This document shows positions 10,901 through 46,815 of a DNA stretch of 64,000 bases, piece after piece; position 1 is the first letter of the stretch, and the number at the start of each line of letters is the position of its first letter. The position numbers and the translations under genes were made by a program. The notes under the pieces are model-generated. The model did no database searches. It saw nothing but the letters and a program-made list of their open reading frames with translations, and was not told the DNA's origin. Origin of the DNA: a virus; the IMG/VR virus record IMGVR_UViG_3300026549_000035, positions 32,918-96,917 of that record; one strand, 5' to 3'.

Positions 10901-13900
10901 TTGAGAAGTGGGCTAAGAGCGCCGATATGACAAAAATCCTTGATGGAGATACAGAAGCCTTAGAAAGATTTAGAAAATCAGCTTTTACAGAAATGACTAC
11001 AAACGTATTTTCAGACATGAAAGATTCAGTTGAAGCTTTAATAGAAGATTTAGATTAGGTTAAAGATGCAGCTTATTTATCTGATTTATAGAATCTTTCA
11101 AATGTTTTAAATGATGGAACTTTTTCTGCTGAAAATTTACGAAATGCAATCTAGGATTTAGGAAATCAAGAGATTGGATCCGGCGCAACTTTAAGTGATG
11201 AGTATGTAGAATCTTTAAATAGTATGTTAGCTGCAGGTTTAATGACAGAGCAACAATTAAATGATATTTTTGCTACTATTGGATATAAACCAAAAGTTCG
11301 AACTGCGTCTGTTGATCAATGGGTTGAAATACCTATTTATAAAACAACCGAAGAAATTACTGAAGACACTTCTTCTGGTCTTATGAGTAATCTTTTTGGT
11401 GGAACTCGAAAATCTACTCGTACTGTTGTTTCAAAAACAGTGTAGACTGGTACAGAAAGAATGTTGCAAAAAGTGCCTGTCACTTAGATAGAATCTGCTG
11501 ATACAGCAGGAGGAAATATTGAAATTGTTAATGCAGGAAGTAATAACATTACTCCTTCTTATAGTTCTACTACAACGGGCTCAGGCAGTAACAGTGATTC
11601 TTCATCAAACTCTTCTTCAACACCTACTACTAAAGTAGCTTCTCATACTCATGAAATAAATCGTTATACAGCAGAAGAAAATGCTATTGATGGACTTTCA
11701 AAACAATATGAGAAACTTAATAATATTAAAGACAAGTCTTTTGGAAAAGGTAAAATTCAAGCTATTGAAAATGAAATTAAAGCTTTAAAAGAACTTAAAT
11801 AGGCTTCTACCAACTATATGGATGCTATCGTTGGTGATGGTAATGGTAAAAGAATTGCTGAAGCTATATATCGTGGTGAAAATATTGGCGATCTATTAAG
11901 AAATGGCGCAATTAGTGGTAATTTAGGTTCTGATTATAGAGCTTTAAGCTATGGCATTAGTGCTTCTGGAAAATAGGTTGAATATACTGCTAAAGATGAA
12001 GCAGGAAATGAATGGTTGGCTTCTCGAGATTATAATATAAATGATTTTAATGCCATGTTTGGAACTAACATTCATTTTGATTTAGACGCTTTTGGCAATA
12101 TACAAAATGCAGATTCTATTAGAAATTAGCTTCAATAGTTAAAAAATAATGAATCTGATGCTTATTCTAGTATTGCAGATCCAACTGCAAGCTCTACAAC
12201 TAGATATAATGAACGTATGGCTTATATTGATGAAATATTAGACCGTATGGACACTTTTGGAGATTCTATTAATACTCTAAGTGAACAATCTGAAGAATAT
12301 CTTGACTATATTACTTAGCTTCAAGAGAAAAATGCTGAATTAATTACTTCTAAAATGGAACTTGGAGTTGAATTAGGAGATAAGAGTTTACGAAGAATCG
12401 ATCGTGCTTTAAAAGTTTTAGGAAATGATATATATAGAAGTACTGAAGCTATGAAAAAAGCTTTTGAATTAAATGATCAAAAAATAGAGTCTTCTTAGGA
12501 AAAAGCTTAGTCTTATCAAGAGATGATGAACGAAGCTGAAAGAAGATTTGCTTTATATCAAAAAAATCCTTTAAATGAAGATGCTATTACTCCTGCCGAA
12601 TATGCTGAAATGCTTTCTACTGCTGAAGAAGGATTTGAGTCTATTGCAGATGAAATGCGAGAATATATGAATTATTTTTATGATATGTATTCTGGAATGC
12701 AAGATTATTGGGAAGAAAAAATATCTCGTATTACTAAACAAATGGAAGATAGTATTAAAGTTTTAGAATATTATCAAAAAGTTTTAGAGCTTACAGGGCG
12801 TTCTGGAGATTATGAATTAATTGGAAAAATTTTAGAGGGACAAGCAGAAACAGCTAAGACTATATTTGAAACTTCTCAAGCTCGAGCTGAATTAGCCAAG
12901 AAAGAATGGGAAAGACAAAAAGATGATCTTGAAAAAGCAAAATTAGATCCAACTCTTTCTAAAGATTTATTAGATACATTAGAAAATATGACTGAATTAG
13001 CTTATGAAAAATATGTTGAAGCAGTTGAAACTGCAAGAGAAGATTCCTTAAATTATTTAGAAATAACTCAAACTGCTTTTGAAAATAAAATTAAACAAAT
13101 GCGAGTTGAATCAGAAAAATTCTTGACTAACGGAAGTGATTTTGATAGTTTAAATAAATCTATGGAAAGACAAAAGAGTCTGTCTGAGGATTATTTAACT
13201 AAAACTAATTAGCTTTATGAAACTAATAAGATGTTACGTCAATTAAATCAAGATATTGATAAAACAGACAGTGTTATAGCTAAAAATAAATTAAAAGCAT
13301 TTGCAGATGAAATTTCAGCCATGCAAGACCAAGAGAAATTAAGTAATACTTCTTTAGAGATTGCTAAAGCGAAATATGAAATTTTATAGGCTCAAATTGC
13401 TTTAGAAGATGCCTAGAATGCAAAATCCACAGTATAGTTAAGAAGAGATTCTGAAGGTAATTATGGATATGTATACACAGCTGATGAAGAAGCTGTAAAT
13501 AATGCTTAGCAAAACTTAGAAGATAAAGTAAATGCTTTATATAATTTAGGTAAAAAAGCCAGTGAAGATTTTGCTGAACGAATGATTTAGTTAGAATAGG
13601 AAGAGTGGGCAGAAATTGAAGAAATAGCTAATAATACTATTCTAACTACTGATGAAAAGAATATTAAAATTGCTGAACTATAGGAATATTATAATGCTAA
13701 AAGATAGGCTCTTTCTGAGCAATATGAAGAAGCTAATTTGGCTCTTCAGCAAGGAGCAGTCGCGCAAAGACTTTTAATCACTGATAAATTTAATACTGAA
13801 AATCTTGATATTGAAAAAGTTGCGGCTGAAGCTAGAGCAGAAGCTTGGACAGAAAGTTTTGCTACTACAATAAAAGATTAGAATACTTATGAAGCACATT

Positions 13901-14853
13901 TTAAATAGCTTGCATCACAATTAAAATCTGAGATGTAGAAATTGGATGATAAAAGAAAATAGCATGAACAAGCAACTAAAACAGGAAATAAAGAAATTAA
14001 AGAAAGTATTGATGATATTACTGATGCAGTTGATGATTTAAGTTATGAGATTTTAAAAAGAGATGGTCTTTTAGATTCATACAGTGATGCTTTAAATGCT
14101 TCTAATGCTTTAAAAGATTCTTTTAAAAGATAGTATGAAACAGCAAGAGAATTAGCTAATCAATATTCTAATGCCGCAGATAGAGCTAGTAATTTATATA
14201 CAAAAACAGTTGATTTAATTAATGCTTAGGTTGCTCTTAACCATGCAAATAATGGAGCTACTTATGTAGAGTGGGGTCCTGGAGGAGTTACAGCAGATTA
14301 TAATGGTAATACTGTTTCTAATGGTGGAAATGGAAATAACTCTAGTAATAAAATTTCTGTTGATAATAAATCTCAGTTTAAAAAAGTAGACCCAAGTAAA
14401 GTAATTTTATGGCAAGATGAATATTATCATTTTAAAAATGGAGATATTTCAAAGATTAATAATAGAGGCGCTAAATATGGATGGGAATGGGATGAGCTTG
14501 GTTATAAATATAAAACAGGTGGTTATACAGGCTCTTGGAATGGACCAGATGTAGAAGAAAATGGAAAGTTAGCTTTCTTACATCAAAAAGAATTAGTATT
14601 AAATGCAGATGATACTGAAAATATGTTAAATGCAGTAAAATTAATCCGTTAGATTAGTGAATCTATTGATTTACAAGCTGCAGTTTAGAGTTCTTATTCC
14701 GTTGGAGCAATTTAGTTCCCTGGAAATAATCAAGTTTTATAGCAAGAAGTTACTATTCATGCAGAATTTCCAAATGCAACTGATCATAATGAAATTGAAG
14801 AAGCATTTAACTCTCTTGTTAATAGAGCTTCTCAATATGCAAATCGTAGTTAA
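4927..14853 (+). CDS. tail tape measure protein, about 3,308 aa, with dozens of TAG sense codons
   Basis: RBS AAAGGAG then ATG 4927. Frame 1 is continuous to TAA 14851-14853, and every in-frame stop is TAG. Hallmark tape-measure blocks are present (LGATTASSSSEISEGISKFASVADTVGLS…TAFKTMFARVEG), with long coiled-coil regions. The C-terminal region is the conserved Gram-positive siphophage block (…KTGGYTGSWNGPDVEENGKLAFLHQKELVLNADDTENM…). Confidence 0.9.
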
Positions 14854-25643: not shown

Positions 25644-25707
25644 TTTTTGACATTCTCAAAAAAATATTTTATAATTAATCTATAGAAAAATAAAAGGAGG
25701 TCTTTTT

Positions 25708-26602: not shown

Positions 26603-26645
26603 CAAAAAAAAGGGTAAGGAAATAAATTCCTTACCCTTTTATTTT
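26603..26645. terminator. bidirectional rho-independent terminator
   Basis: AAAAAAAAGGGTAAGGAAATAAATTCCTTACCCTTTTATTTT sits between convergent + and - strand genes. Confidence 0.75.
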
Positions 26646-26942
26646 ATTAAATATTTTATTTGTAATTTCAATTATTTCTTCGCCATATGAGGCGATTAAA
26701 TCGGCTATGAGTTCTTCCTAATCAATTGTTAAATTAATACCATAGCTAAACATAGCAGCATGAGTTATTTCGTGACATAATACTTTTTTTAATTTTTGGT
26801 TAGATACTAACTCGCTAATATAAATTAATTTAGTATTATCATCACATGCCCCAAGTGCATATGTTCCATTAGTTCGCTAAATTTTAGGGTGATTAGGGGA
26901 AACTAATTTTATCCCCCAATCAACCCCATTTATATTAAACAT
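26631..26942 (-). CDS. HExxH zinc metallopeptidase-like protein (ImmA/IrrE or SprT-like), about 103 aa
   Basis: Minus-strand reading MFNINGVDWGIKLVSPNHPKIQRTNG…KVLCHEITHAAMFSYGI… has an HEITH motif and 2 TAG codons, then TAA. Confidence 0.45.
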
Positions 26943-27516
26943 TTTGGATTTTTGCAGCTAAAGTATTTATTTTTTTCTAAACGATTGCTTTTTCTTCTGG
27001 AGAAGCTTTATCTAAAAGTTCCATCATATCAGAAGTTAAATCTTGCATATAATTTTCTAACTCTTTTATAGTTTTAGATCTTTCCTGTCCAGTAGATTTA
27101 CTTTCCATATACATTTTTCGTTTCATTGGACTGCGTCCTTCGCGCTCATCGCGAATATATATTGGATAATCTCTTTCGGTGTAGTAACTGCGGCCAGCTT
27201 CTCCCATTGAGTTTGAGGAACTGGAAGTTGAGCTGGAATTGCCTCCATTATTGGACGAGCTGGTTCCAGTCCCCGAGTTGGAAGAGTAATACATCCTTCC
27301 TAAATCACGATCCATGTCACGGTCATATGCAGGATAATAACGCTCGGTATAATAGTAATTATTAGAACCTCGCATCATCATTTCTTCTTTGCGGCTTTCT
27401 TCAGAGCTTTTCATTTGATCATAGATTTCGCAATAATAGACTGCTTCAGCTAAGTCTTTTATCATATCTACTACTTCTCCAAGTTCTTTAGCATCTACAC
27501 ATTTTAAATCGCTCAT
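26935..27516 (-). CDS. Tyr/Ser/Gly-rich low-complexity protein, about 193 aa
   Basis: Track ORF 26977..27516 continues through TAG to TAA at about 26935. It carries repeated YYTER(Y/D)YP(A/I)Y(D/I)RD motifs and a poly-Ser/Asn/Gly tract. Confidence 0.5.
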
Positions 27517-27572
27517 TTGTGCCTAGACTTGAGCGATTAACTAATCCTTTATTGTTTTTAATTGTTCTACCA

Positions 27573-27995
27573 TTATGCCACCCTCTCAATAATAAGATTA
27601 GCGTTTTGAACGCTTACAGGTATAGTACTTGTATTTTCTATACTTATTTGACTGCAACATCCAATAGGAACGTCTACATAAATACTAGCACCAACATTAT
27701 TATATTGATCAACCGCCGCAGGAGTTGAAATCATACTAGAGGTGACTACTGGTTCTCCGTTGATTGCTATGGCAAGACTTACGGGGCCTACTGTTTCATC
27801 AGTAGGCACCGCAATATTAGCACCAAATTCAACGAGGAATCTCGCACGACATTGTCCATTTGGCAATCCGCGCAAGCCAACCAATCCGCTGCCTTCTCTA
27901 TGAATCATTGAGCAGTTACCTGGAACTGCAGTTTCATTAAAAAGAACAGCCTAATTTACGGCTACTACTTGAGCCGCATTAGCAGTTATTTCCAT
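27573..27995 (-). CDS. BclA C-terminal domain-like (TNF/C1q-like) protein, about 141 aa
   Basis: Track ORF 27573..27908 extends upstream through TAG to ATG at about 27995 (RBS AGGAGAG). The C-terminus …IPVSVQNANLIIERVA resembles the Bacillus BclA C-terminal domain ending …IIIEKVA. No collagen repeats are present. Confidence 0.45.
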
Positions 27996-28016
27996 CTTTA
28001 AATTCTCTCCTTTCTA

Positions 28017-28808
28017 TTAACCAGCAAATCCATTACATAAAGGACCGCCATACATTGCGTTATAACCATAGGTGCCAAAAACACCAGTATATGGATTAGC
28101 AACAATATAAGCTGGCTCTGCCGCAGGACGAAGAGCATTAATAAGATAGGCATTTTGCTCACTTTGAGAAATTTGACCTTTAAGAGCCTGATTCTCAGAA
28201 GTAAGGGCTGAGATACGATCTTGAACTAAGAAATCAAGAATTTGACGAGTATTATTATTTGCATTATCAATAATATCTCTTGCGCCAGTGGTAATAGCTG
28301 CTCTATCAGCGCATGCTTCAGTTGCAAGATTGTAATTTAAAGTTGCAAAATTAGAATCAATTCTATTATTAGTTTGGCAATTTGCTAATTGTTCTGCGGC
28401 AGTGTGAGAAGCTAATTCGCTAGAAAGCATATTAGTATTCTGTAAACCGCTAACTGTATTAGCATTAATAGCTTGAATAGTTTCAAAACCAGAATTACAA
28501 ATCTAAGATTGAGTTCCAGAAAAACCATTCAAAAGACTTGTATTTAAATTATAAAAACCATTAGCTGTGCTAGAAGCTAAATCTCTAACTCCACTAGAAA
28601 CATCGTGCATATCAAAATTGTAACCAATATCTGCGGTTACATTTCCTGCACCATTGTTTCCCCAGCCGCCAAAGCCATTGCCCCAGCCACCGAAACCGAA
28701 TAAAAATAAAAGAATAATCCACCAACCATTATCTCCGCCGAATCCATTGTTGTTACCGCTTACTGCGGCGATGTCAGATAAGCTATAACCGTCACTTGTG
28801 TTAAACAT
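28017..28808 (-). CDS. Gly/Trp-rich predicted membrane protein, about 263 aa
   Basis: Track ORFs 28503..28808 and 28017..28430 share a frame and are joined by one TAG. The N-terminus is …NGFGGDNGWWIILLFLFGFGGWGNGFGGWGNNGAGN…, with a hydrophobic segment flanked by GW/GF repeats. RBS GGAGGACAA precedes the ATG. Confidence 0.5.
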
Positions 28809-28824
28809 TTAAATTGTCCTCCTT

Positions 28825-29063
28825 CATAATCCTAATTTCTGCTTAAATGCAGAGAATTCTTTGTCGAAGTCGAGGCCTCTTTGTGCACACAAATTTCGGG
28901 CGAATTGTTCTATCCCCTTTCCATCATTGTTTTGAGCCATTCTAAGCAAGTTCTGACCGACAGGCGTATTACCTGCTTGCTACTGGAGCATATTCATTAT
29001 CATTTCTTGAGGGTTATTACCACTCCGCATCATTTGTATAAATTGCATTATAGAATTTGCCAT
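28825..29063 (-). CDS. small hypothetical protein, about 79 aa
   Basis: RBS AGGAGAGG then ATG at about 29063. Reading is MANSIMQFIQMMRSGNNPQEM…, with one TAG, ending TGA at about 28825. Confidence 0.4.
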
Positions 29064-29082
29064 TTAAAAAACCTCTCCTTCA

Positions 29083-29481
29083 TTAAAACTTGAATTCTGG
29101 AACAGAAGTTTGTTGAGGCTGAGTTTGATCATGACTCTCCATTACAAGATTAGCTTGCGCCAATATCTGTTTCAATGCTGCAATTGCCTAATCAAATTCA
29201 TCTCTTGTGACAAAAGCATTTGAATTTACTTCTGGACTCATGGGAATCTCTTTTAATTCATACATATTAAGAGCTGCTGTCCCATCTACATTACATTGTT
29301 TTGTATAAATTCTCCCGTTGGCCAAATCGGGAAAAAATGAAACAGTCCCATCAAAATCAATTGCGGCTGCTCGAACTTCTTCTAACCCGGTCACTGGACG
29401 TCCTTTTAATCCTAATAAAGGAGATCGAGTAGAAGGAGCTGGAGTCTAATAATAATAATTTTGTGTTGGTTGATATGGCAT
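29083..29481 (-). CDS. hypothetical protein, about 132 aa
   Basis: RBS GGAGG then ATG at about 29481 (MPYQPTQNYYYQTPAPS…). The gene runs in frame through track ORF 29188..29394 and one TAG to TAA at about 29083. Confidence 0.45.
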
Positions 29482-29617
29482 TTGCTAAACCTCCTTTTTA
29501 CCAAAAATTCACGGAAATTTTTCCCTTTCCGCATTATTCTTTAATTTTTATTTTCTAATAATTTTCCCACTTTGTCCAAATTTTTCCGGGAATTTTTGGT
29601 AAAAGGCGTCAGGAGGT

Positions 29618-29646
29618 TGCATTTTAAAAAATTTTTTGCTATAATA
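29618..29646 (+). promoter_or_regulatory. sigma-70/SigA-type promoter for the holin operon
   Basis: TTGCAT, a 17-bp spacer, then TATAAT lie about 90 nt upstream of ATG 29735. The element is embedded in an inverted repeat carrying GAATTTTTGGTAAAAGG motifs at 29495-29515 and 29586-29606. Confidence 0.5.
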
Positions 29647-29734
29647 AAGACAGAGAATAAGTGAAAGGGTAGGAGAAAATAGTATGGGTTTTGAATAAGT
29701 AATTTTTAATTAGAAAAAGAAAGGAGGAAAAAAT

Positions 29735-30124
29735 ATGGATTTTAAAACAATTTTACCTATTATTTTTGAAGTAGTCATTATACCACTTCTTGCAGCTTTA
29801 ACTACCGTTGCTGTAAAATGGCTTAATGCTAAAGCAAATGAAATTAAAGCAAAAACAGATAATACAGTATTAAAAAAATATATTGATATGTTAAATGAAA
29901 CTATTTCAACTACTGTAATAGCAGTCAATCAAACATATGTTGATTCTCTCAAAGAACAAGATATCTTTACTGAAGAAGCGCAATAGAAAGCTTTTAATAA
30001 AGTTCTTGAAACTGTAAAAAGTTCTTTAACTGAAGATGCTGTAATTTATCTGAATGAAGCAATTGGAGATCTTGATTCTTATATTAAAAATAAAATTGAA
30101 GAGCAAGTAAAAATTAATAAATAA
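29735..30124 (+). CDS. holin (LL-H family-like), about 129 aa
   Basis: RBS AAAGGAGG precedes the ATG. There is a single N-terminal TM helix (ILPIIFEVVIIPLLAALTTVAVKWL) followed by a charged C-terminus typical of Holin_LLH. One TAG is read through, ending TAA at about 30124. Confidence 0.55.
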
Positions 30125-30250: not shown

Positions 30251-30727
30251 ATGGAAGAAGTTCTACAATGGATAGGAACTCATTGGGTGGAATGGCTCTT
30301 TTGTTTAATTGGTATTGTATTGACGTTTTTAGCTAAACATCATGTTAAAGTATAGAAAGAGTTATTAGAAGAAAAGTGGAAAGATAAAGAAAAAAATATG
30401 TGTGGAAAAATAATTACTACTTTTGATACAAAAATTAGTGAAGTAGAAAAAAAATCTTCAGAAGAAGATGCATTGATTCATAATGAGTTAGATAAAATTA
30501 ATACAGAAGTAGATACTATTGAATCAGGTATCTTATCCATCCAAGGAAAGCAATTTAGAGAACTTTGTGAAGAGCTTTTAACACAAGATTATATTACTGT
30601 TGAAGAATATGAAGACTTTGAAGCAGAATATGATATTTATAAAAGCTTAGGAGGTAATCACAAAGGAGATGCTCTTCATGCTAGAGTTGTTGCAAAATAT
30701 GATAGATAGAAAAGTAAATCAGAATAA
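30251..30727 (+). CDS. second holin-like/lysis-associated membrane protein, about 158 aa
   Basis: RBS GATAGGAGGGG then ATG 30251. An N-terminal TM segment (WVEWLFCLIGIVLTFLAK) is followed by a coiled-coil C-terminus, with 2 TAGs, ending TAA at about 30727. Confidence 0.45.
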
Positions 30728-35688: not shown

Positions 35689-36925
35689 CAATTTTGTTAT
35701 CCTACAGGCTTTTTATCCTATAGTTCTTATAGTTTCCTATAAGTTCGGCGTACATTTTCATCTACGACTTTACGTTTAGATGTTGGACACTCTTGGAAGG
35801 ATTATATTTATTCACCTTCTACGCTCTACGGTACTTCTTTGCCTTTCGCAATCAAAGAAGTTACCTCGGTATTAGCATAAATTAAATTATATTTTCTTTT
35901 AAGATAATGATTATTATGATTTTTATATAAATAATTTCGTAATAAAACTATATCTTTTTGACTAGACCATCTAATTCTTTTTATAGAACCTTCTTTAGTA
36001 ATATTATTTTTATTTAAAGAAGGTAAAGCTTTAAAAAGATTTTTCTAAACCCAAGATATAATATTTTCATTTCCACAAAAACTTATTTCACAACATTTTT
36101 GACCAGAAGATCGAATATATGTTGTAAAACCTCCATCTCCATCAAAAAGACCTCTTAAAAAAGATGAATTGTATTTAGAATTAAAAATTGGAACTTGCAC
36201 AGAAAAAGTTTTCTTTTGAGTAATTCCCATTTTTTCTAAATCTAAAATTATTTTTTTACACCCTAAGCTAAATCGTTTATAATTTTTATTACTTGTATAT
36301 ACTTTATTAACAACTCCTAAATCTTGTTCTAATAAGTGTAAGATATCTTCATCTTCTTGTTTTAACGTTAATTCTAACTAAAACTTGCTTTTTTCTGGCT
36401 AATTAGTAATTGAACCATCACTAATAATCCATCCGAGCCAATAAGCTTTTTCTGGAGAGTCAATATTTTCAAAATAATTTTCATTTAAATCAGGGTTTTT
36501 TCTTTTTGAAGAAGAAATATTTTCACAATCTTTCACAATTTTTTTTATTCTTTCATAACTAATACTATATTCTTTCTACAATTTTATTAAAGGCTCATAA
36601 TTCATATAACGTTTTTTAATTTCTTCTTCCTATTCTTTTGTTAAAACATTTTTAATTTTAGCACCTATTCTTCTAGGGAGATTATTTATTCTCGCGATTC
36701 GACTAATTGTTGATGTGCTAATATTAAACTATTTTGCTATATCTTGAGTTGATATTTCTGGATGATTTAAATATAAATCAATAATTTTTTTGTCTCTATC
36801 CGTCATAATATAAAAAACTCCTTTACTGGTTTTTCTATTAAGACTTGAAAATTTAATCAGTAGCTTTCACCGATTTTGCCCAATAATATTTTAAAAAATT
36901 TCTTTTTTAAACGGCTATTTAATTA
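35689..36925 (-). mobile_element. self-splicing intron (type 'A/B') in nrdD at the glycyl-radical motif, carrying a LAGLIDADG homing endonuclease gene
   Basis: The 5' exon ends …ACAGGT and the intron ends …GGATAACAAAATTG. The roughly 190-nt 3' core (35689-35885) is about 85% identical to 32383-32575, with compensatory base changes in two stems. Confidence 0.7.
35808..36806 (-). CDS. LAGLIDADG homing endonuclease with N-terminal HTH, about 332 aa
   Basis: …AYWLGWIISDGSIT… and …LRGLFDGDGGF… are the two LAGLIDADG motifs, with an N-terminal sigma-70 region-4-like HTH. Roughly 7 TAG codons are present, and the C-terminal about 25 codons overlap the conserved intron core. Confidence 0.75.
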
Positions 36926-37453
36926 ACCTGTTACTCTACGAAGTTGTTCTATATGAGTTCCACCGCAGCGAGGACAAGTATCATTAATTTCACCTTCCCA
37001 ATCGCAATCTAAACATTTATCAGAAGGAACATTTATTGCAAAATAAGGAATATCTTTGTCCATAGCATAGTTAACTATTTGTTCTAAGGCTTTTGTATTA
37101 TGAACGGCAGACGCATCTAATTCTACATAAGTGATACAACCTGCAGAAGAGTATGGAGTTAATTGACTTTCAATGTCAATCTTATCAAATGGGCTAATAG
37201 AATACCAAACTGGAACATGGATACTATTAGTAAAGAACTCTTTATCAGAAACATTTTTAATAATTCCATATTTTTCTCTAAATTTTTTCAATGCTGTATA
37301 ACATAGATTTTCTGCTGGGGTATAATAAACTCCGAAGTTAAGAGAATATTGCTCTTTGAATTCAGCGCAACGCTTTTTAAATAACTCTTCAATTCTTTTA
37401 GCAACTTCCATACCTTTTTTTGTGGTATGATCGCAACCAACTAAGATCTAAAG
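36926..37453 (-). CDS. nrdD: NrdD exon 3
   Basis: …(ILV)GCDHTTKKGMEVAKRIEEL…CLDCDWEGEINDTCPRCGGTHIEQLRRVTG. This is the C-terminal Zn-ribbon of class III ribonucleotide reductase. The 5' boundary is approximate. Confidence 0.65.
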
Positions 37454-38686
37454 AGTCTCTGCGAGACCTAACTGCATTTTTTATACCCTTCTTTTCAGAA
37501 TATTTAAAGGGATTAGACTATACCATAAATTGATTTATAAATTTCTTGATTGTCTAATTTATTTTTTCTTATTGGTAGTTTAAATTGATTAGTAATTTCT
37601 TTCCATGTAACTCCTCTAGAAATATCTCCTACAGTATTTTTTCCTATGTTATAAGAATTAGCAATTTCCTATAAAGTATTACTAGTAAATATAAGCTAAT
37701 AACAAATATTTTGGACTTCTAATTCAGATAATTTATTCTAATAAACATTCTTTTTTATATTTTTTCTAATAGGATAATTTAAATCCTTAGGACACCAGCT
37801 GTTTTTTCCCCTGTTTATTTCCCCAACAGTATAATTACTTATACCTAAAGTTAAACCGATATCTACAATAGATAAATTTAAATCATTTTTTAACATATCT
37901 ATAATCTTTTTAACTAAATCATTATTTAATTTAGTATGATTTGGGGTTTTTCTTATTGGATAATCTAAATTAGCTTCATAAAAACTTCGCCCTCTATTAA
38001 TATCACTAATACAAGTGAGACTTACTCCAAAATCATTTGCAATTGTTTGAAATGTTATATTACTATTTTTTAACAAGTCTTTAATTTCCATTTCAGCAGA
38101 ACCGCATATTAATTGTTTAGAGGTGCTTCGTTTTCCTCCTTTAGTCATATTATATCCTTTTCCAGAAGTATAATATGCATCAGTTATTTTTATTTGATAA
38201 ATTTCTCTTTCATCTAATTTTTCTAATGGAATAAAATCTTCTACAACCTCTATTGAAAAATTATCAATTCCATATTTTTTTAAAGCTCGATGAAAATACA
38301 ATTCATCATTTTTGGTATCCTATAAATGTTTATTAATTCTATCTTGTAATCTACAGGTAGTCTAACCAATATAAATTTTTCCATTAATTTTATTAGTAAA
38401 TTTATAAATTAAACCAGTTCTCATAAAAATAATTGCTCCTTTTTTACTTTTTCATATTATTATGAAAACTGGGACAATCGCATTTTTCAATTTTGTCCAT
38501 TATAGTCGTTGAACGTTCCTCTGTTCTAGAGGCTTCGCTGCGTCTGGTTGCCCAATCCTTAACGATTTTACCATATCTTGGTCGCTAACCTTGCCACTTA
38601 TATATTCCTATATAAGCTTGGTTGTTAAGGCTCTAAGGGTGTTCCCGCAATTTAGGACATTTATAGTGGGCCAGTGTTAGGCTTTA
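37454..38686 (-). mobile_element. group I intron (distinct subtype) in nrdD carrying a GIY-YIG homing endonuclease gene
   Basis: Exon 2 ends …ALKHGTLAVG (…CAGTGGGT), complementary to an internal guide-like GGCCCACTA. A roughly 260-nt 5' core with hairpins (GTGGGTTAAAGCCTAACACTGGCCCAC…) precedes the ORF. After the ORF comes a roughly 60-nt 3' tail …GTCTCGCAGAGACTCTTTAG. Confidence 0.6.
37513..38424 (-). CDS. GIY-YIG homing endonuclease, about 303 aa
   Basis: MRTGLIYKFTNKINGKIYIG[TAG]TTCRLQDRINKHL[TAG]DTKNDELYFHRALKKYGIDNF…GYNMTKGG, followed by two repeated HTH modules (…IANDFGVSLTCISDINRG…, …LTLGISNYTVGEINRGK…). Confidence 0.8.
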
Positions 38687-39023
38687 ACCCACTGCCAAAG
38701 TTCCATGTTTAAGAGCAGAACGTATACCCTCTTCTGGAATGTAACCTGCCATAGTATGATTTTCATACATAAATTTAGCAGAATTTGGATTTTGAGAACA
38801 AATCCATTCAAAACGTTCAAGTAAAGAATCTTTTGCATCAAAAATAGCTTGATCCAAAATCTTTAAAAATACTTCTACAATATCATCATCATATTCACTG
38901 TCAAAAACTTCTTTTGCTTCCATTGCTAAAGTAGGAAGGATAATTGTAACAGGACAAATATTTCCTCTACCATCTTTTAACTGACCAAAACCATTAATAT
39001 CCCAACCATTTGCAGTTCTACAC
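38687..39023 (-). CDS. nrdD: NrdD exon 2
   Basis: CRTANGWDINGFGQLKDGRGNICPVTIILPTLAMEAKE…ALKHGTLAVG. Joined to exon 1 it restores the conserved MGCR motif (…STMG|CRT…). Confidence 0.65.
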
Positions 39024-39830
39024 ATGTTTACCTAATGTTGCCATTAGCACTGACTATATCTTCTATCTTTTTATTAAGATAGCCTTCCGCTTCGAATATG
39101 TGCCTATCTCATATTCTACTCCCTTACATTCATCAGGGATAGTCGATACAGGTTTTTAATCTTTATCATATTTCCAAATATATCCATAAGCTGTTTTTTG
39201 TTTATTATTTAAACAATAATTAATTCCAACATTTTTAGATTCATTTCCTAAAAATCTAGCTGCTTCTCTTGCTGTTTGGAATCTTTTTAATAATTGTCCA
39301 TTTTTATTATACATTAAAACATCAGCAACATATTTAGAATTTTTATTACCTTTTCCTTTTTCTGAAATAATTTCTTTAATATAATCAGAATGTTTATGAT
39401 ATTCAATACCGCCTAGATCAGCATTATATCCATTTGGTAGTAAAGAATTATACTTTTGAATATATTCACGTTCTATTTTTGATATTTCATTATCTTTTAT
39501 ATTTGTTAAAAGTATTTCAAAAGAAAAATTTTCAATTCCATTTGCCTATATTGCTTTTCCTATAAATGATTTAGAACTTGGTTTTTTATGTTCTGCGAAT
39601 CGTTCATATGGATTTCTATTTGTAATACCTATATAATTTTTATTATTTAATAAATTTGTAATTTTATATAAACTATACATTTTATCACCTTCTCTTTTTA
39701 AGATGATAAAGATTAAACTTCCCACGGTCTCATCCGCATGGGACCTAACCGTTAGCGCAGTCACATTATTTGCGGCCGCACACCCTCAGGCGAGGTTCAA
39801 AAGGTTTTAGATGAGCTATAGTTTCCACTT
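39024..39830 (-). mobile_element. group I intron (IA2-like 'GCTAACGG' family) in nrdD carrying a GIY-YIG homing endonuclease gene
   Basis: The 5' exon ends …ATGGGT. The intron carries …GCGCTAACGGTTAGGTCCCATGCGGATGAGACCGTGGGAAG… (compare T4 td …AACGGGGAACC…AATCCCGTG…). After the ORF come CCTGTATCGACTATCCC…ATAGTCAGTGC then a hairpin, ending G. Confidence 0.65.
39157..39680 (-). CDS. GIY-YIG homing endonuclease, about 174 aa
   Basis: MYSLYKITNLLNNKNYIGITNRNPYERFAEHKK…NGYNADLGG…KTAYGYIWKYDKD. The start is anchored by track ORF 39546..39764. The 3' end coordinate is approximate. Confidence 0.75.
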
Positions 39831-41096
39831 ACCCATCGTTGAGAAATAAGTTCTTGGGTCATTTCGATCATATCCAGCATTACCAGACCAATCAACATTA
39901 GCATAATTTGGATATAATCTCTTAGCAGTAGATTGTAAAGCTAATTGATATAAATCGTAATTGGGGTCTCCCGGTTTACGATTAACTCCCTTCATACATT
40001 GGAAAATTCCACAAGGGAAAATTGAAGTTCTATAATGTTTTCCTAATCCTTCAATAGACACATCTAATAAAGCTTTAATTACCATTCGACCTTCTGAACT
40101 AGTGCAAGTTCCATAATTAATAGAAGTAAATGGAAGTTGATTTCCACTTCTGGACTGTAGAGTATTTAAATTATGATACATACCTTCTGCAGCTTGGTGG
40201 GCTTCTCTTTTAGTCATTTTAATCGCAAAATTATATACTCGCTCATTATATGCTTTCCATTCTGGATCATCAATGCTATAATCTTTCGCATTTTTTGCCA
40301 TATTGACAATTTCATAATCGGCTTGAGACCAATTTTTATCTTCAAGGAATTCCCAACCATCTATATAGTGCTTTACAAAACTTTTACGCACATATGGAAC
40401 CATTGTCCAATCTAAATGAGTTGCAGAAACTCCACCAAACTATTGTAAGCTTTGTAACTAGAAAATAACCGCAACCAATTGGAAAGCAGTTTCTAATGCT
40501 CCAGCAGTTCGAACATCCGTTTGACGAGTGTTAAATCCTTCTGCTAACAAATCATCAAAAGGAATACTTAAACAGTTATGAGATCCAACATAATAACTAC
40601 CTAAATCATGGATATAGTTTCTATTATTAATATGATTGTAACAAGCTTTATCAGATATAATAAAATCTAAAGCTAATTTTTTAGCTACAACATCCATTGC
40701 TTCGCCAGTTCTTCCTCCAAAAGAGTTCTCATCTACATTAGCATTTTGCTTTTGAATGTTTTTTGCATCTAGCTTTTCTCTAATAGCATCAATAAAATCA
40801 TGTTGATAATTACGAGCTACCTCTTTTTTATAACGATATCGAATATATGCACGAGCCACATCAAGACGCTCAGAGCGCATTAAATATTCTTCTACTAAAT
40901 CTTGAATTTTTTCAATTGTGCAGAGGTCATTATCTTGAGATTTAAAATAATCTTCAATTTCATCTGCAATATCTTTAGCAGTATCTTCTTCATAGAGTTT
41001 TCCATCTACTTCAAGAAAAGCAGCATTAATGGCATCTATAATTTTTTGTTTATCAAATGTAACAAGAGTTTTATCTCTTTTTTCTACATTAATCAT
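39831..41096 (-). CDS. nrdD: NrdD exon 1 (ATP-cone + N-terminal catalytic region), about 422 aa
   Basis: RBS AAGGAGTG then MINVEKRDKTLVTFDKQKIIDAINAAF… is an ATP-cone. …NRNYIHDLGSYYVGSHNCLSIPFDDLL…LQSRSGNQLPFTSINYGT…YFSTMG follows. Track ORFs 40458..41096 and 39816..40403 are in frame and joined via TAGs. Confidence 0.75.
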
Positions 41097-41436: not shown

Positions 41437-41847
41437 TAATTCATATGGAGATATATAAAACATTTCTGGTTTATAGTCTGCATATAAAACAGTTCTTTTC
41501 TAATAATAAATTTTTATATCAAGATTGTTATTTAAACAATACCAATGATATTTTACATTTTTAAATTCTGGTAAAAAACGATATTCTTGTCCAGGCTTAA
41601 TAATTATATTTTTTAATATCATTTTTTCTAAAGGAATTTCTATATAAGCACCATAATCACCAATAACAACACGAGAATATCCTTTAGCTAAAAAATGACC
41701 ATATTTATCATATATTTTACAATTAAGATTTCCGTTCAAAGAGAAACAAGACGGAAGTTCTTTTTCGTATTGTCTTCTTTGTTTTATAGATAATTCTTTC
41801 GGTAAAGGTTTATAATGATATTGATCTACTAATTGTTGAATTGTCAT
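41437..41847 (-). CDS. hypothetical protein, about 136 aa
   Basis: Track ORF 41500..41847 extends through TAG. The start overlaps the dnaE stop (TAATG). Confidence 0.4.
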
Positions 41848-43250
41848 TATTCTCCATTCTCTCCTTTATATCTTTCACTCTAAAGAATTAAACTACCATC
41901 ATCATTAACTTCTAAAATATGATATAATTGATGCCCAACAGAAGAAGCATATTTTTTAGTTACAAAAGTATCTCCAAGTCTAATTCCTTGCACCATAATC
42001 ATATTACCTCTATTAAAAAAACTTTTTTCTATTACATGTTTAACTCCGTCTAATCCTTTTTCTGAAATTTGTTTATCAAATAATGCAAAATATTCTTTTC
42101 TGAATTTTACATTAACAACTCCGTTAGTCGTTAAAATTGTTACTGTACCTTTTGTCTTATTTTTAGCAATACAAGTTCCACAAATACGACAAAGTTTAAA
42201 GATATGAATAGGCTTATTCTTTTTATAAAAGGTTTTCTCTATTTCAGGTTCTTCAGGTAAATTATAAAAATTTTTTAAACCATATCTTTCAAAATCAACC
42301 TTTGCTAATTCATGTTCATGTTTATAGAAGCAAAGAACTTCCATTTCCCAAGCAGATAAATTCGCCTTTCCCGCATATTTATCCCAATCTGCTTTAAATA
42401 TTCGAGTATTTAATTCAGATAAAATTTCTTGTCCATCTTGCGCAAGCCATTCTCTAAAAACATCCATATAAGATTGATATATTTTATCCCATTTTTTCAT
42501 ATTTAACGTATTATCTGAGTTAATTAAATTAGCGACTTCTATTTCTACTAAAAAATCAATTGCTCGATTATCAACATGATAACATACTGAATCATTCTTT
42601 ACTTTACATATAGCTTTTAAATATCTATTAAATTCATAAACTCTAAAAGCTAATTTTCTTTCTTCTGTATCTAATGGAACTAAGTCTTGTTTTAATAAAG
42701 TTGGAAAATTTTGTAATGTTAATCTAGCTTTTTTATCACAAGTTTCCCATATATACCAAGCCATAGCTTTTTTTCTATCCATCATTTCATCAAAAGCTCC
42801 CGCTTTAATTAATGATATCATAGGTTGTTTTTTTGGTTTTACTTTTTGATAGAAATCTTTTATTGAACTATATGGACGATTTTTAATAATCTGATTCACA
42901 AAATCATCGTTTACATTTAATAAAGCTTTCATTCCAAAAAGAATTCGATTGTTTTCTACATCAGGTTTAAATCCAAAATCAGAAGTATTAATATTTACTA
43001 GACTAACATTAATACCTGCATTAATAATTTCATTCAAAGCTTTTGCAACTTTACCATAATCAGTACTTGCTGCTTTTTTTTGAGTTTCATTTTCTTCTGA
43101 TTCTAATACATTTTCATCATCGTCATCTTCTTCTAATGAACCACTGTTTACAACTAAGCAAGCCGTATCCCAATATATAGGATTCCAATGAGTTCCTAAA
43201 TATAAAGTTTGCGCTCCAACAAAACTATATGCTAAAGCGTGTATGCATAA
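41847..43250 (-). CDS. dnaE: DNA polymerase III alpha (DnaE-type) exon 3
   Basis: …CIHALAYSFVGAQTLYLGTHWNPIYWDTACL… aligns with DnaE HSAAYALVSYQTAWLKAHYP…, and the C-terminal region runs to TAA at about 41847. The 5' boundary is approximate. Confidence 0.65.
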
Positions 43251-44462
43251 TTAATTTATTACTGACTATTTTTTACAGGTGTTGTAGTGAAGTTGGCAAA
43301 ACTTCTTACCTGCACACTGTTTCCCAATGCGTATCAATAGCATCAGTACTCTCTGTCTAACCAGAGATAGTCGATACAACATTTCTTATTTAAAAGGTTT
43401 ATTATATTATTTATTTCTTAAAGGATATTGATATTCTTTTTGTTTATGCGAACGTCCAGAATTAATATTTTTTACAGTAGAATAAGATTTTCCCCATTTA
43501 TCAGCAATTTTTTTTAATGATATATCAGAAGTTAAAATATCTTTAATAATTCCTTTTACCCAAATTTCATTATCTTGTTTTCTACAGCCTTTATTACAAA
43601 GAGGATATTTTTCTTCTTTATCATAAAAATATTTTCCTGTATTTATCATAGATAAAAATCCAGCGCTTTTTATATTAAAATCTTTTTGAATAGAACTATA
43701 TTTTTCTCCAGATTTTATTCTTTTTTTAATTTCTTTAATTTCTTTTTGAGAAAATTTACTTTTAGCATTTTTCTTTAAAGGATAATCAAAGTCAGGATTA
43801 AAAAAATTAGTTCCTGTATTGATATTTACTAAAAAAGTTCTTTTTAACTTTGGAGAATACAAATTCTCAATATCATCATATTCTTCATCATTTAACAATC
43901 TTTTTTGAATATCTTTAATCTCATTCTCTGTAAATAATTTTGAGCGTTTTAATTTTTCTTCATAGCTTAAAGGAGGCTTTGGACATCCCTCTCCACCAAT
44001 AGTTACATTATATCCATTTTCATCTTTTAAAGAATGATAATAAGCAATAAAAAATTTTTCTCTTTCATTTATAAAATCTTGACTTTCTTCGTCTGCAATC
44101 TCTTCTAAAACTTCATAATCAAAATTTTCTATGCCATATTTTCTAATTGCGCAATGAAAAGGAAGCCAATAGCCAAAAGCTTTTTCATTAAATGATTCAC
44201 TTTTATGTCCATTATATCTTTTTTGTAAATTATTCGTTTGTCCAATATAACAATGTCCATTTATTTTATTTGTAAATTTATAAATATAAGTCATCTTTTT
44301 TCACTCCTCTCATGGATATTTGAAAAATATAATATCTCTTTTAAATAGATTTGTCACGAGATTTTACCCTCGTTAGCAATTATTTTATTTATTTGCCAAA
44401 TAAATTATCAAAATAATTACCCCCGTGATGAGCGGGTTAAGTGTGTAAGCGCCATTACAACG
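43251..44462 (-). mobile_element. group I intron (IA2-like family) in dnaE carrying a GIY-YIG homing endonuclease gene
   Basis: It splits the conserved DnaE motif GY(S/G)F|N-K-S-H-S-A-A-Y. The 5' part carries …GCTAACGAGGGTAAAATCTCGTGACAAATC…. The 3' part carries …TTGTATCGACTATCTC…AAAAATAGTCAGTAATAAATTAATTATG. Confidence 0.6.
43407..44294 (-). CDS. GIY-YIG homing endonuclease, 295 aa, TAG-free
   Basis: ORF track: MTYIYKFTNKINGHCYIGQTNNLQKRYNGHK…GYNVTIGGEG…, with repeated C-terminal modules. Confidence 0.85.
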   Translation of the reverse strand: MTYIYKFTNKINGHCYIGQTNNLQKRYNGHKSESFNEKAFGYWLPFHCAIRKYGIENFDYEVLEEIADEESQDFINEREKFFIAYYHSLKDENGYNVTIGGEGCPKPPLSYEEKLKRSKLFTENEIKDIQKRLLNDEEYDDIENLYSPKLKRTFLVNINTGTNFFNPDFDYPLKKNAKSKFSQKEIKEIKKRIKSGEKYSSIQKDFNIKSAGFLSMINTGKYFYDKEEKYPLCNKGCRKQDNEIWVKGIIKDILTSDISLKKIADKWGKSYSTVKNINSGRSHKQKEYQYPLRNK

Positions 44463-45665
44463 CTAAATGAATAACCCATCTGAGGTCCAGCTCCGTAACG
44501 CCAAACATATTGACCTAATTTTTCACTTTTAGCTTGCCGCAAAACCTTATCTCTTAATTCAGGAATTTTATCCATCAATTTTTTACCAACCACTTTACGA
44601 GCTTTGTTAGCATCTCCTAAACTAAAATTACAAATATTAGGATCCATTAACATTTTCATAAGCTGCTCTTGGCTTGGTGGAACTCCATATGACTATTTAA
44701 AATATGGTTCTAATATTTTTTGTTCAGTTTTAGTTAAACCAAAATCATCCATTTCTTTATACCATAAAGAAATATCATTTTTATAACGATAATATTTATC
44801 TATAGGACGTTCTTCGCCTTCTTCACCCATCAATCTCATTAATCCATTTGCATCAGCCATTTCAAGAATAGATTGAGGTTTAAGAAGTTTAGCGGTTTTT
44901 ACACCCTCTGTGCCTTCAAATTGGAAGGTATTAATAACAGACATCTTTCCTAATGCTTCCCATATTTTTTTATCAGTTTCTATTGGAAGAACATTTGGAT
45001 GAAGATATTTATTATAAATTTCTCGAAGAGATAAATCTTTTTCAATTTCACCGTCTTCTTGAAGAAATTGAATTGTTTGAACAATTTTATCTTGTGCTTC
45101 AGTTACAAGAAAATCATATTTTGTTAATCCCATATATTCGGCATCATGTAAATCATATTGAGTAATAATTTTGCCTTTTGGAGTTTTCATAAAAGCACTA
45201 TGTTCAAATGGATCACCATCAAATAAAACAATTCCAGAAGCATGAGAACTTCTTTTATTTATTGTTCCTTCAATAGCTAAAATAATATCTAATAATCCGG
45301 GGTAATTATTTACTTCATAAATAAAAGTTTTTACAGGTTTTCTATGTTTTTCTTCATTACCATGTACAACATCTTTAATACTCCATAAAAATCCTCGTTC
45401 TTGTGGAATTAAAGAAGCCATATACTGGGCTTGGTCAACATCGATACCATCTGGATACTCTTCACTACGATAACCTCTACATGCGGTTAAAACAGCAGAC
45501 TTAGAACCTTCTGTCCCAAAAGTAGAAATACGAGCACAACCAAAAATTTCTTTTGCCCATTCTGGAACATCATTATTAAACATTTTACTGCGTTCAGTTG
45601 CAATTTTTTGAAGAATTAAATTACATTTAGATGGACATATATCTATATCAATATCCTTTTATTAT
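44463..45665 (-). CDS. dnaE: DNA polymerase III alpha (DnaE-type) exon 2
   Basis: DIDIDICPSK…ISTFGTEGSKSAVLTACRGY…AIEGTINKRSSHASGIVLFDGDP…GLTKYDFL…LGDANKARKVVGKK…GYSF. These are the DnaE core motifs (PDIDIDF, RHASTHAAGVV, AMGKKK). Boundaries are approximate. Confidence 0.65.
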
Positions 45666-46815
45666 TGGACTATATCTTTTACAATAAACTACTGAGAATA
45701 ATTACTTCATTTATTGTAAGAGTGCGCTACGGAATAGTGCTTATCTCTATTCCTCTATATTAGTCTCTACACTCCAATAAAAACCTTTATATAATGTTTT
45801 ATTTTTAATGGCTTTATCTAAACCTGTATGACCTTTCATATTTAAAAAATCTAATACTGCTGTTTTAGCATTAAAAATTTTTATTAAATTATAATCTTTA
45901 TCATACATATAAACTTTTTTACCATTAATAGCATTATTTTTACTTTTTCCATACATTCCATTTTTTACTCCTGAAGTTTTTCCTTTACTATGTTCAGACA
46001 TTAATTTTTTAGATTCTTCAGTATGATGTTTTCCATACATTCCATTTTTTGCTCCTTTAGTAGCCTCTGACATAGTTTTACGATATTCTTCAGTTTTCAT
46101 ATAAGATGTATCTCTATTTTTACGAATTTTTTCTTTAGTCTCTTCTGTCAAATGAATACCATATCTAGGATTATTTTTTCCTTTATATTTATTACTCATT
46201 TTTTGTGAATATTTTTCTTTTTCTTCTTTACTCCATCCAGCTCTTGTATTACCACCATTTCCGCCTTCGTGAATATTATAAAAATTTTCATCTTGAACTG
46301 CGTTAAAAGCAGAAATAAATTCTCTTTCTTTATTAAAATTTTCTTCTTCATTAGATGAAATAAAAAGAATTTCTTTTTTAAAATATTCTATGCCTATTTT
46401 TTTTATATCTTCTTTTAACTTAGTTCCACTACCTAAGTATTTATCATCTAATTCTCCGTAGTGTTTTCCGATGTATTTTTTACCAGTTAAAAGATTTGTT
46501 GTTAAATAAATATAATGTTGTTTCATATTATCACCCTTTCATTATTATATGATTAAAGTGATATTGACTTTGACAGACATTGACCAAGATTTTTATATAG
46601 TTTTTATTAAAGCACGGTATTACGTGTCTAGCCTTTTCAGGACCACTCGCTCTCTTAGTCAGCTGATTCGCATATTATAAAATATATATAATATCTTATT
46701 TTGCTGATACCGTTAGCTTGTGCTTTACCAATTTTTGACAGGAATTTTTGGTAAGCCACAAACACCTCTTAGCAGAGTTCACACTCTTTTTTTACAACTC
46801 GGCAATATCAATATT
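45666..46815 (-). mobile_element. group I intron (diverged member of the IA2-like family) in dnaE at the PDIDIDF motif, carrying a GIY-YIG homing endonuclease gene
   Basis: Exon 1 …ERIELGSL and exon 2 DIDIDIC… rebuild the conserved DnaE motif. The 5' part carries …GCTAACGGTATCAGC…ATACCGTGCTTTAAT…. The 3' part carries …ATATAGTCCAATAATAAAAGG. The repeated GAATTTTTGGTAA motif also occurs at 46725-46760. Confidence 0.55.
45747..46526 (-). CDS. GIY-YIG homing endonuclease with NUMOD3-like repeats, 259 aa, TAG-free
   Basis: ORF track: MKQHYIYLTTNLLTGKKYIGKHYG…NIHEGGNGG… plus repeated NxxYGxHxTEEtK modules. Confidence 0.85.
   Translation of the reverse strand: MKQHYIYLTTNLLTGKKYIGKHYGELDDKYLGSGTKLKEDIKKIGIEYFKKEILFISSNEEENFNKEREFISAFNAVQDENFYNIHEGGNGGNTRAGWSKEEKEKYSQKMSNKYKGKNNPRYGIHLTEETKEKIRKNRDTSYMKTEEYRKTMSEATKGAKNGMYGKHHTEESKKLMSEHSKGKTSGVKNGMYGKSKNNAINGKKVYMYDKDYNLIKIFNAKTAVLDFLNMKGHTGLDKAIKNKTLYKGFYWSVETNIEE

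Follow-up and report, generated by a model that had tools for sequence, protein, structure and literature searches.

A window of 64,000 nt from the IMG/VR virus record IMGVR_UViG_3300026549_000035, about a third of a probable ~190-kb genome, was analysed, and positions are given in the numbering of this window. On its minus strand, 26631-29481 is filled exactly by six tightly packed genes, g1 to g6, once TAG is read as glutamine (Gln). These genes form a cassette that recurs in fixed order in many other phages. The initial annotation of this DNA, made by a model from the letters, had placed six minus-strand genes in this interval without mentioning recoding, and its gene count and boundaries were found to be right.

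With TAG as a sense codon, open reading frames (ORFs) of at least 100 aa cover 90% of the window, compared with 35% under the standard code and 37% under TGA recoding. Every candidate island gene contains in-frame TAG, and the late genes on the plus strand and the replication genes on the minus strand are also TAG-bearing. The reassignment to Gln is based on g4, since its TAG at codon 15 falls on a Gln that is invariant in the homologues, including those of the standard-code Butyrivibrio phage Ceridwen and of Dulem viruses 33 and 39. The six-gene island is intact because the phage reads TAG as Gln, and only then. In a standard-code ORF list with a minimum of 30 aa, g3 is split into pieces of 101 and 137 aa, g4 is truncated and g6 is missing. 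A tRNA scan of the window gave no tRNA gene and hence no suppressor tRNA, and an Rfam scan was empty as well.

The first gene, g1 (29083-29481), encodes 132 aa with TAG at codons 12 and 98 and follows a strong Shine-Dalgarno sequence, AAGGAGG; strong sites of this type also precede g2, g3 and g4. g2 (28824-29063) encodes 79 aa and has one TAG. g3 (28017-28808) is the longest at 263 aa, and its single TAG, codon 102, joins the two standard-code ORFs. g4 (27573-27995; 140 aa) has only the TAG at codon 15, g5 (26935-27573; 212 aa) has three and g6 (26631-26942; 103 aa) has two. The stop of g4 is overlapped by the start of g5, and the end of g5 by the start of g6.

The composition of the island differs from that of the rest of the window, with a GC content of 38-39% against 25-30% and a third-position GC (GC3) of 0.255 against 0.145 ± 0.06. 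TAG makes up 19% of its Gln-type codons (10 of 53, a small sample), compared with 45% in the plus-strand late genes and 30% in the replication genes. Both the GC3 and the low TAG share fit a module that moves between differently coded phages and is less adapted to this one.

Conservation and distribution of the cassette

Relatives of the island were collected as a first set of 65 sources from phage and genome collections and as a viral set of 80 IMG/VR loci (L067-L146). The genes g1 to g5 are syntenic, in fixed order, in about 145 loci. Because this gene order recurs in about 145 independent loci, the six-gene island is far beyond chance. In the viral set, the counterparts of the six genes (G1 to G6) are present in 77, 75, 79, 79, 72 and 67 of the 80 loci, respectively, with G2 located between G1 and G3 in 75 of the 80. 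Iterative searches over all ORFs of the first set found G1 in 52 of 65, G3 in 58, G4 in all 65 and G5, in a long or a short form, in 57. The same set of six, with products of 132, 79, 267, 141, 230 and 103 aa, is present on the contig of a related large phage.

The individual families are large. Relatives of g3 number more than 7000 at 90%-identity clustering and form 1594 clusters at 50%. For g4, 6275 relatives were obtained by single-sequence search and at least 8000 by profile, all with E ≤ 0.001 and counted as 90%-identity clusters, and at least 579 IMG/VR contigs carry the family. In an annotated phage collection g4 occurs in 15 records, of which the sole cultured carrier is Ceridwen, a phage that infects Butyrivibrio fibrisolvens; Dulem virus 39 has g2 to g6 in synteny. 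A scan of species-representative genomes yielded 57 loci, all of them uncultured and metagenome-derived, with gut, rumen or faecal samples as the named sources. The bins of most of these 57 loci are Clostridia or Bacilli, although some loci have clearly been mis-binned; hosts are inferred from these bins of metagenome-assembled genomes (MAGs) and from one cultured phage. All records in which the cassette turned up are phage records or contigs that are viral or metagenome-binned. A blastn search of the island against the phage collection gave two short matches only.

The carriers include standard-code, TAG-recoded and TGA-recoded phages with GC contents of 24-62%. As TGA-recoded carriers (L022 and three of L067-L146) stand beside TAG-recoded and standard-code ones, the module crosses three genetic codes. 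No description of the cassette as a multi-gene unit was found in the literature searched, and its members appear only as PHROGs of "unknown function". It is a widespread, uncharacterised and mobile cassette of gut and rumen Firmicutes phages. The initial annotation had taken the island for something other than standard phage functions and had suggested looking for similar islands elsewhere. That view holds up: the island recurs in phages both related and unrelated, its products show no clear homology to ordinary phage proteins, and none of them matches a phage family of known function.

The stand-alone C1q/TNF-like protein g4

In the predicted structure, a monomer model built on a 96%-identical database homologue, g4 is a stand-alone C1q/TNF-like (BclA-C-like) jelly roll of ten strands. 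The closest folds are BclA, F-BclA and ExsFA (14.1), followed by animal C1q/TNF domains (12-14), and phage fibre knobs score lower. The initial annotation had likened the C-terminus of g4 (...NANLIIERVA, which is present) to the TNF-like C-terminal domain of the exosporium protein BclA. This likeness stands at the level of the fold and falls short at the level of sequence. Identity to the C-terminal domains of BclA and F-BclA and to ExsFA is only 13-18%, the match to Pfam BclA_C (PF18573) reaches 23.1 bits and lies below the gathering threshold of 38, and the g4 family profile found no BclA chain among PDB sequences. The 140 aa contain no GXX collagen repeats and no exosporium leader.

Within the family Cys113-Cys114 is invariant, the motifs HREGSG and VQNANL are conserved, and sequences from hosts of very different GC remain about 50% identical. 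Similar stand-alone proteins of 130-145 aa were found in gut phage genomes in BFVD. An extra, very divergent g4-like ORF of 133 aa was observed at 12278-12679 of the relative L004, and also in L005 and L006, on the opposite strand. In these three relatives it closes the tail-fibre operon, has a family-2 glycosyltransferase as its neighbour and converges with g6; no such ORF is present in the window.

The long-helix protein g3

The N-terminus of g3 is acidic and Gly-rich and contains the GFGG...GWWIILLFLFGFGGWGNGFGGWGNNG stretch that had been pointed out earlier. It is followed by an 11-residue hydrophobic segment flanked by Trp (GWWIILLFLFGFGGWG). The protein belongs to phrog_16490 (E 1.3e-21) and, at 263 aa, is far longer than typical holins. 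AlphaFold2 modelling with a diverse alignment of 78 sequences predicted residues 67-225 as one unbroken helix of 159 residues (pLDDT 80-94). In the same model the N-terminus is disordered, a short helix forms at WWIILLFLF, and both the Gly/Trp/Asn linker and the Pro/Tyr/Gly-rich tail are disordered. The hydrophobic periodicity of the helix is sharp at 3.67 residues, a hendecad value, and not at 3.5. In the window copy the hydrophobic stretch of about 11 residues is below the 19-residue Kyte-Doolittle threshold, which many relatives reach.

Motifs of the g3 family include CCC, TRDIIDNxNANTR, PxPAY and a C-terminal CGC. Members have a median of nine Cys, with the CCC motif in 83% and the C-terminal Cys cluster in 81%; the window copy has lost most of these residues. 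A g3-g4 fusion was also considered and was rejected, as no fused ORF occurred among the loci or match lists.

Two alternative small enzymes

The initial annotation had called g6 an HExxH peptidase-like protein, and the follow-up supports this assignment. Its HEITH motif is part of a minimal HExxH...E arrangement, with H57, E58, H61 and E77 kept without exception across 14 diverse members. The match to Pfam Peptidase_M78 is marginal (22.4 bits, cut-off 22), and DUF6782, DUF2268 and SprT-like fall just under their cut-offs. In a profile search of the PDB, g6 matched the ~110-aa MJ1213 (E 8.7e-4), Wss1/WLM (0.015) and IrrE (0.047), and it belongs to phrog_1233 (E 2.2e-18). By these sequence criteria g6 is a putative minimal gluzincin zinc metallopeptidase of the M78/SprT/MJ1213 kind. 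An ImmA/ImmR pair was rejected, since g6 in the window and its relatives is flanked by g5 and by a terminator or convergent genes, and no helix-turn-helix (HTH) protein was seen in Pfam scans or ORF maps.

A second form of the cassette, the Cys variant, is without G6. It starts with a ~125-aa protein of phrog_3754 that has an invariant Asp-Cys, His and Asp, and usually ends in a short G5 and a ~105-aa protein that is helical by eye. The Cys-His-Asp motif can be read as a papain-, C39- or CHAP-like catalytic triad, which would make the protein a putative peptidase. Pfam searches with 16 members gave no family, and sequence and profile searches of the PDB were empty for this enzyme, as they were for g1, g3 and g4. 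Its homologues in three Bacillus phages are annotated as peptidase or "putative peptidase". G6, the Cys-enzyme and both together were counted 22, 30 and 0 times in the first set and 67, 1 and 0 times in the viral set. The exchange of one small hydrolase for an unrelated one in an otherwise fixed cassette argues for proteolysis or hydrolysis as an integral part of what the cassette does.

Tsamsa-like Bacillus phages and Geobacillus phage GBK2 have solitary homologues of the Cys-enzyme in their early regions. One such copy lies at 5968-6363 of Bacillus phage Izhevsk (L065), and in the Tsamsa-like phages a Ser/Thr kinase and an Ocr-like anti-restriction gene are close by. The GBK2 (L066) homologue, at 4980-5369, is upstream of RecT.

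The low-complexity proteins g1, g2 and g5

The three remaining products are of low complexity. The N-terminus of g1 (phrog_21718, E 1.8e-4) is Q/P/Y-rich; a small beta-rich core follows (GRPV..EE.RA..IDFDG...IYTK...DG), and the C-terminus is helical. g2 is small, Q/N/M-rich and helical by eye, carries the motifs NPQQ...NP...IEQFARN and has no Pfam, NCBIfam or PHROG family. In g5, both ends are conserved and helical by eye, and they enclose a centre rich in Tyr, Arg, Ser, Gly and Asp. This centre includes YYTER repeats, among them the YYTERYYPAYDRD and YYTERDYPIYIRD units listed in the initial annotation, and the S/N/G tract noted there.

Pfam, NCBIfam and PADLOC scans of the six proteins gave only the g6/M78 match above threshold, and all PHROG matches of cassette products are of "unknown function". 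No peptidoglycan-hydrolase domain (amidase, muramidase, glucosaminidase, CHAP/NlpC, M15/M23) was found for g1 to g6 or the Cys-enzyme in Pfam, NCBIfam or PHROGs. The sole PADLOC match was a weak one of g5 to NsnA (E 0.0016) in low-complexity sequence; with no PADLOC model matched beyond it, a known anti-phage defence system was rejected. An integrated small virus was likewise discarded, as no replication- or packaging-type gene was seen in the island.

Genomic neighbourhood and orientation

The constant neighbour of the cassette is the lysis module: the g6 form stands right behind a holin-family gene and the Cys variant right behind an endolysin. Of the 80 viral loci, 41 have a gene of the phrog_13712 holin family immediately 5' of G1 and in the same orientation, at a median gap of 154 bp, with 42 of 44 gaps within 1.5 kb. 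A member of the same family also adjoins the cassette in L004, L005, L008, L014 and L017 and in the window. The usual layout of the G6-type loci is tail genes, holin, G1 to G6 and then convergent replication genes. The cassette is inverted in the window and in its nearest relatives (L004, L005 and L008), and there the holin gene is divergent, at a distance of about 250 bp. Since the cassette in most relatives runs in the direction of the late operon and comes right behind the holin, the opposite-strand orientation is a lineage-specific inversion and not an intrinsic property of the island.

The initial annotation had also recognised no endolysin near the holins. None was recognised in the follow-up either: five endolysin seed families, with spot checks, gave no match within 8 kb in the 80 G6-type viral loci or in the window. 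The g6-type cassette fills the genomic slot that is normally held by an endolysin. In the Cys-variant loci an endolysin (GH73, PGRP, amidase, CHAP or M23) lies about 0.2-1.3 kb from the cassette in at least 14, and an integrase lies 240-530 bp downstream, on the opposite strand, in at least nine. An integrase-seed search confined to the first set found none in the large-phage loci of that set. In Ceridwen a terminator precedes the cassette.

Flanking genes and transcription signals in the window

The island lies between tail genes on one side and a PHROG holin-family gene on the other, as had been described. Upstream on the plus strand, a 1626-aa ORF matches several tail-fibre PHROGs, and a 296-aa ORF that adjoins g6 in convergent orientation has a C-terminus matching the tip of a relative's tail fibre. 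Between g6 and the 296-aa gene there is a bidirectional, intrinsic-terminator-like hairpin (26608-26640) with a 14-bp stem and T-runs on both strands. A perfect sigma-70 consensus (TTGACA, 17 nt, TATAAT) was observed at 25647-25675, just 5' of the 296-aa gene.

On the other side, a divergent intergenic region (29482-29734) separates g1 from the holin-family gene, and its signals are partly conserved in relatives. It contains on the minus strand a -35/-10-like site at 29578-29550, which is a consensus match only. Between this site and the g1 Shine-Dalgarno sequence lies a leader hairpin on the same strand at 29510-29533 (CGGAAA...TTTCCG followed by a T-rich run). The hairpin is terminator-like and recurs in part in L017, and could have a regulatory role. 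Of the two genes initially taken for holins, that at 29735-30124 on the plus strand (HOL1; 129 aa, one N-terminal transmembrane segment) does belong to the "holin" family phrog_13712 (E 5e-29). The second, at 30251-30727 on the plus strand, encodes a 158-aa membrane protein with one N-terminal transmembrane segment and a remainder helical by eye, and its PHROG matches are of "unknown function" only.

Several features elsewhere in the window were also recorded. The late operon contains an ORF of 3308 aa (4927-14853) with 96 in-frame TAG codons, whose position suggests a possible tape-measure or tail protein. The anaerobic ribonucleotide reductase NrdD lies at 36923-41096 in three ORFs (39807-41096, 38684-39025 and 36923-37477), which correspond to aa 1-417, 418-533 and 534-716 of the intact 745-aa NrdD in L004. 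GIY-YIG endonuclease-like ORFs occupy the gaps (39156-39764 and 37513-38424). The split suggests endonuclease-bearing intervening sequences; the Rfam scan gave no group I intron. DNA polymerase III alpha (41847-48206) is similarly in three pieces (46779-48206, 44417-45583 and 41847-43037) with GIY-YIG-like ORFs at 45741-46526 and 43407-44294 in the gaps, and is a single gene of 1332 aa in L004. At least nine GIY-YIG-like ORFs are present in the window.

Possible function of the cassette

Because the cassette nearly always adjoins a holin-family gene or an endolysin, it is read here as lysis-associated, and most plausibly as an accessory, envelope-acting lysis module. This reading is put forward tentatively, with a probability of roughly 0.45. 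It lies in the direction in which the context evidence points, namely the unconventional lysis or host-surface role that had been proposed initially. Late in infection, g3 would insert in the cytoplasmic membrane through its short Trp-flanked hydrophobic segment and display an amphipathic helix of about 24 nm. Its Pro/Tyr/Cys-rich tail would dock a trimeric C1q-like knob formed by g4, giving a two-polypeptide analogue of a fibre with a stalk and a C1q head. The products of g1, g2 and g5 may be low-complexity partners or substrates, and the protease could mature one of the components or attack an envelope protein or wall peptide. Once the holin fires, the complex would act by helping to breach or detach the wall or S-layer, or by tuning the timing of lysis.

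Several observations weigh against an accessory lysis module. Endolysin detection covered five seed families and spot PHROG checks, and the "holin" identity of HOL1 is based on its PHROG label. The neighbourhood varies: in Dulem virus 39 the cassette is beside an integrase, in L055 it separates the capsid genes from the tail genes, with a CHAP lysin nonetheless alongside, and in L013-type phages two tail genes separate it from the holin. The cassette proteins have no match to known peptidoglycan hydrolase, holin or spanin families. No signal peptides were seen in them by eye, and the hydrophobic stretch of the g3 family is bordered by Trp and Gly and has hardly any Lys or Arg beside it, which leaves topology and even insertion uncertain. 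Bins and cultured host alike indicate Clostridia and Bacilli as hosts, which, being monoderm, need no spanin. Finally, since homologues of the Cys-enzyme occur alone, that enzyme need not be dedicated to the cassette. A bolder form of the proposal would have a protease-primed, membrane-anchored g3 capped by a g4 trimer and joined by low-complexity matrix proteins as new machinery for envelope breaching or release, or as a coat-like assembly released with the progeny. Such machinery would be a functional counterpart of spanins in monoderm Firmicutes and, in g6-type phages, would replace the endolysin beside the holin. This stronger claim is doubtful.

Among the rival explanations, it is possible, though rather unlikely, that the cassette is a moron or lysogenic-conversion module, transcribed autonomously, in which g3 and g4 form a fibril or coat at the host envelope and, instead of aiding lysis, alter the surface for adhesion, aggregation, superinfection exclusion or receptor masking. 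The order endolysin, cassette and opposite-strand integrase in at least nine Cys-variant loci is the classical slot for conversion genes. The window cassette has its own terminator and a divergent promoter region, as Ceridwen has a terminator before it, and its higher GC3 and its TAG share, the lowest in the window (0.19 vs 0.30-0.45), fit a more foreign origin. The cassette also moves between unrelated phage backbones. In most large phages, however, it has the orientation of the late operon and follows the holin at about 150 bp, and it is kept across phages of 70-200 kb with no integrase in the large-phage loci of the first set. By-eye inspection of the products showed no signal peptides, and g4 is about 50% identical across hosts, unlike receptor-specific exclusion proteins. 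A virion fibre or decoration is a somewhat weaker candidate, in which g3 is the stalk and g4 the knob on head or tail, with g1, g2 and g5 serving as chaperones or scaffolds and the protease processing the fibre to its mature form. Stand-alone BclA-like proteins in many gut phage genomes, the location next to tail-fibre genes, where the structural operon has its distal end, and the divergent g4-like ORF that ends the tail-fibre operon in L004-L006 are in line with it. Against this, the unrelated backbones, from 40-kb sipho-like phages to phages of 200 kb, share no obvious partner for attachment, the holin in most cases stands between the cassette and the tail genes, and temperate phages carry the cassette after their lysis genes or near the integrase. 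The WWIILLFLF segment would also be odd in a soluble fibre, and g4 is highly conserved, whereas receptor-binding tips vary.

A multi-subunit lysin, with g6 or the Cys-His-Asp enzyme as the catalytic subunit degrading wall or S-layer and the g4 trimer as the binder, would explain the mutually exclusive use of two unrelated enzymes as swapped catalytic domains. It would also suit the g6-type phages, which show no recognisable endolysin beside the holin, and some authors label Cys-enzyme homologues "putative peptidase". As a separate reading within the lysis-associated role, it is nevertheless improbable. Neither enzyme matches a peptidoglycan-hydrolase family, the nearest relatives of g6 (M78/IrrE, SprT/WLM and MJ1213) cleave proteins, the Cys-variant phages already have canonical endolysins, and g1, g2, g3 and g5 are left unexplained. 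Least probable by far is a mimic of the spore coat or exosporium, whose products would join or imitate the host exosporium, although the initial annotation had seen such a flavour in the composition. The closest folds of g4 are exosporium proteins, the composition is coat-like (the g3 family is Cys-rich, with a median of nine, and g3 and g5 are Gly/Tyr-rich), and attachment of BclA to ExsFA involves proteolysis. The role is unlikely because one host is non-sporulating and the cassette occurs only on phage or phage-like contigs. To our knowledge, Butyrivibrio fibrisolvens, the only cultured host, does not sporulate, nor, as far as we know, do genera such as Pseudobutyrivibrio and Subdoligranulum, which several bins name. 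g4 also has no collagen repeats and no exosporium leader, and stays below the BclA_C gathering threshold.

Should the link to lysis be real, current holin-endolysin models would lack a conserved multi-protein step that a large share of the Firmicutes phages of gut and rumen use in lysis, and thousands of "hypothetical" genes from human and animal viromes (PHROGs 21718, 22984, 16490, 20016, 1233 and 3754) would receive a working label. Ceridwen, as a cultured carrier, offers a tractable system. The small stand-alone C1q-like binder and the two minimal putative proteases are new parts of possible practical use. If the function lies elsewhere, in surface conversion or in a virion fibre, the alternation of two proteases and the stalk-plus-knob design would still be notable.

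Comparison with known systems

The closest structural parallel is with BclA, F-BclA and ExsFA (BxpB), the C1q/TNF-like jelly rolls of the Bacillus exosporium, to which g4 is similar in fold. It differs from BclA in having neither a collagen-like stalk nor an exosporium-targeting N-terminus, and the candidate stalk, g3, is a separate alpha-helical protein. g4 is also phage-encoded, including in a phage of Butyrivibrio fibrisolvens.

In outline g3 is like the i-spanin Rz, which acts with Rz1, and like XhlA of PBSX, as all are lysis-adjacent proteins with one hydrophobic anchor and a long helix. Rz/Rz1 spanins are disulfide-linked and Cys-rich, and most g3 family members are likewise Cys-rich. 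However, the g3 helix has a hendecad (3.67) and not a heptad repeat, its anchor of about 11-15 residues has no flanking positive charges, five further conserved genes accompany it, and no sequence similarity to either family was detected. Spanin membership was rejected, as no lipoprotein partner or lipobox was seen by eye in the six products and the hosts appear to be monoderm.

With its size of about 100 aa and its HExxH motif with a downstream invariant Glu, g6 resembles the minimal gluzincins and M78-type peptidases MJ1213 ("selecase"), ImmA/IrrE and SprT/Wss1. Unlike ImmA, g6 has no adjacent HTH repressor, lies at the 3' end of a late cassette and can be replaced by a Cys-His-Asp enzyme. 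PlyC is a two-gene endolysin, and by analogy the cassette may encode, in separate lysis-operon genes, g4 as an oligomer that binds and g6 or the Cys-enzyme as a small subunit that catalyses; in contrast to PlyC, it is without a recognised peptidoglycan-hydrolase domain and has four extra conserved genes.

With the morons of Firmicutes temperate phages the cassette shares the slot between lysis genes and integrase in at least nine loci, a terminator of its own and a deviant composition. It differs from them in having no secretion signals that could be seen, in consisting of six or seven genes instead of one, and in being placed also behind the holin of phages of 70-200 kb.

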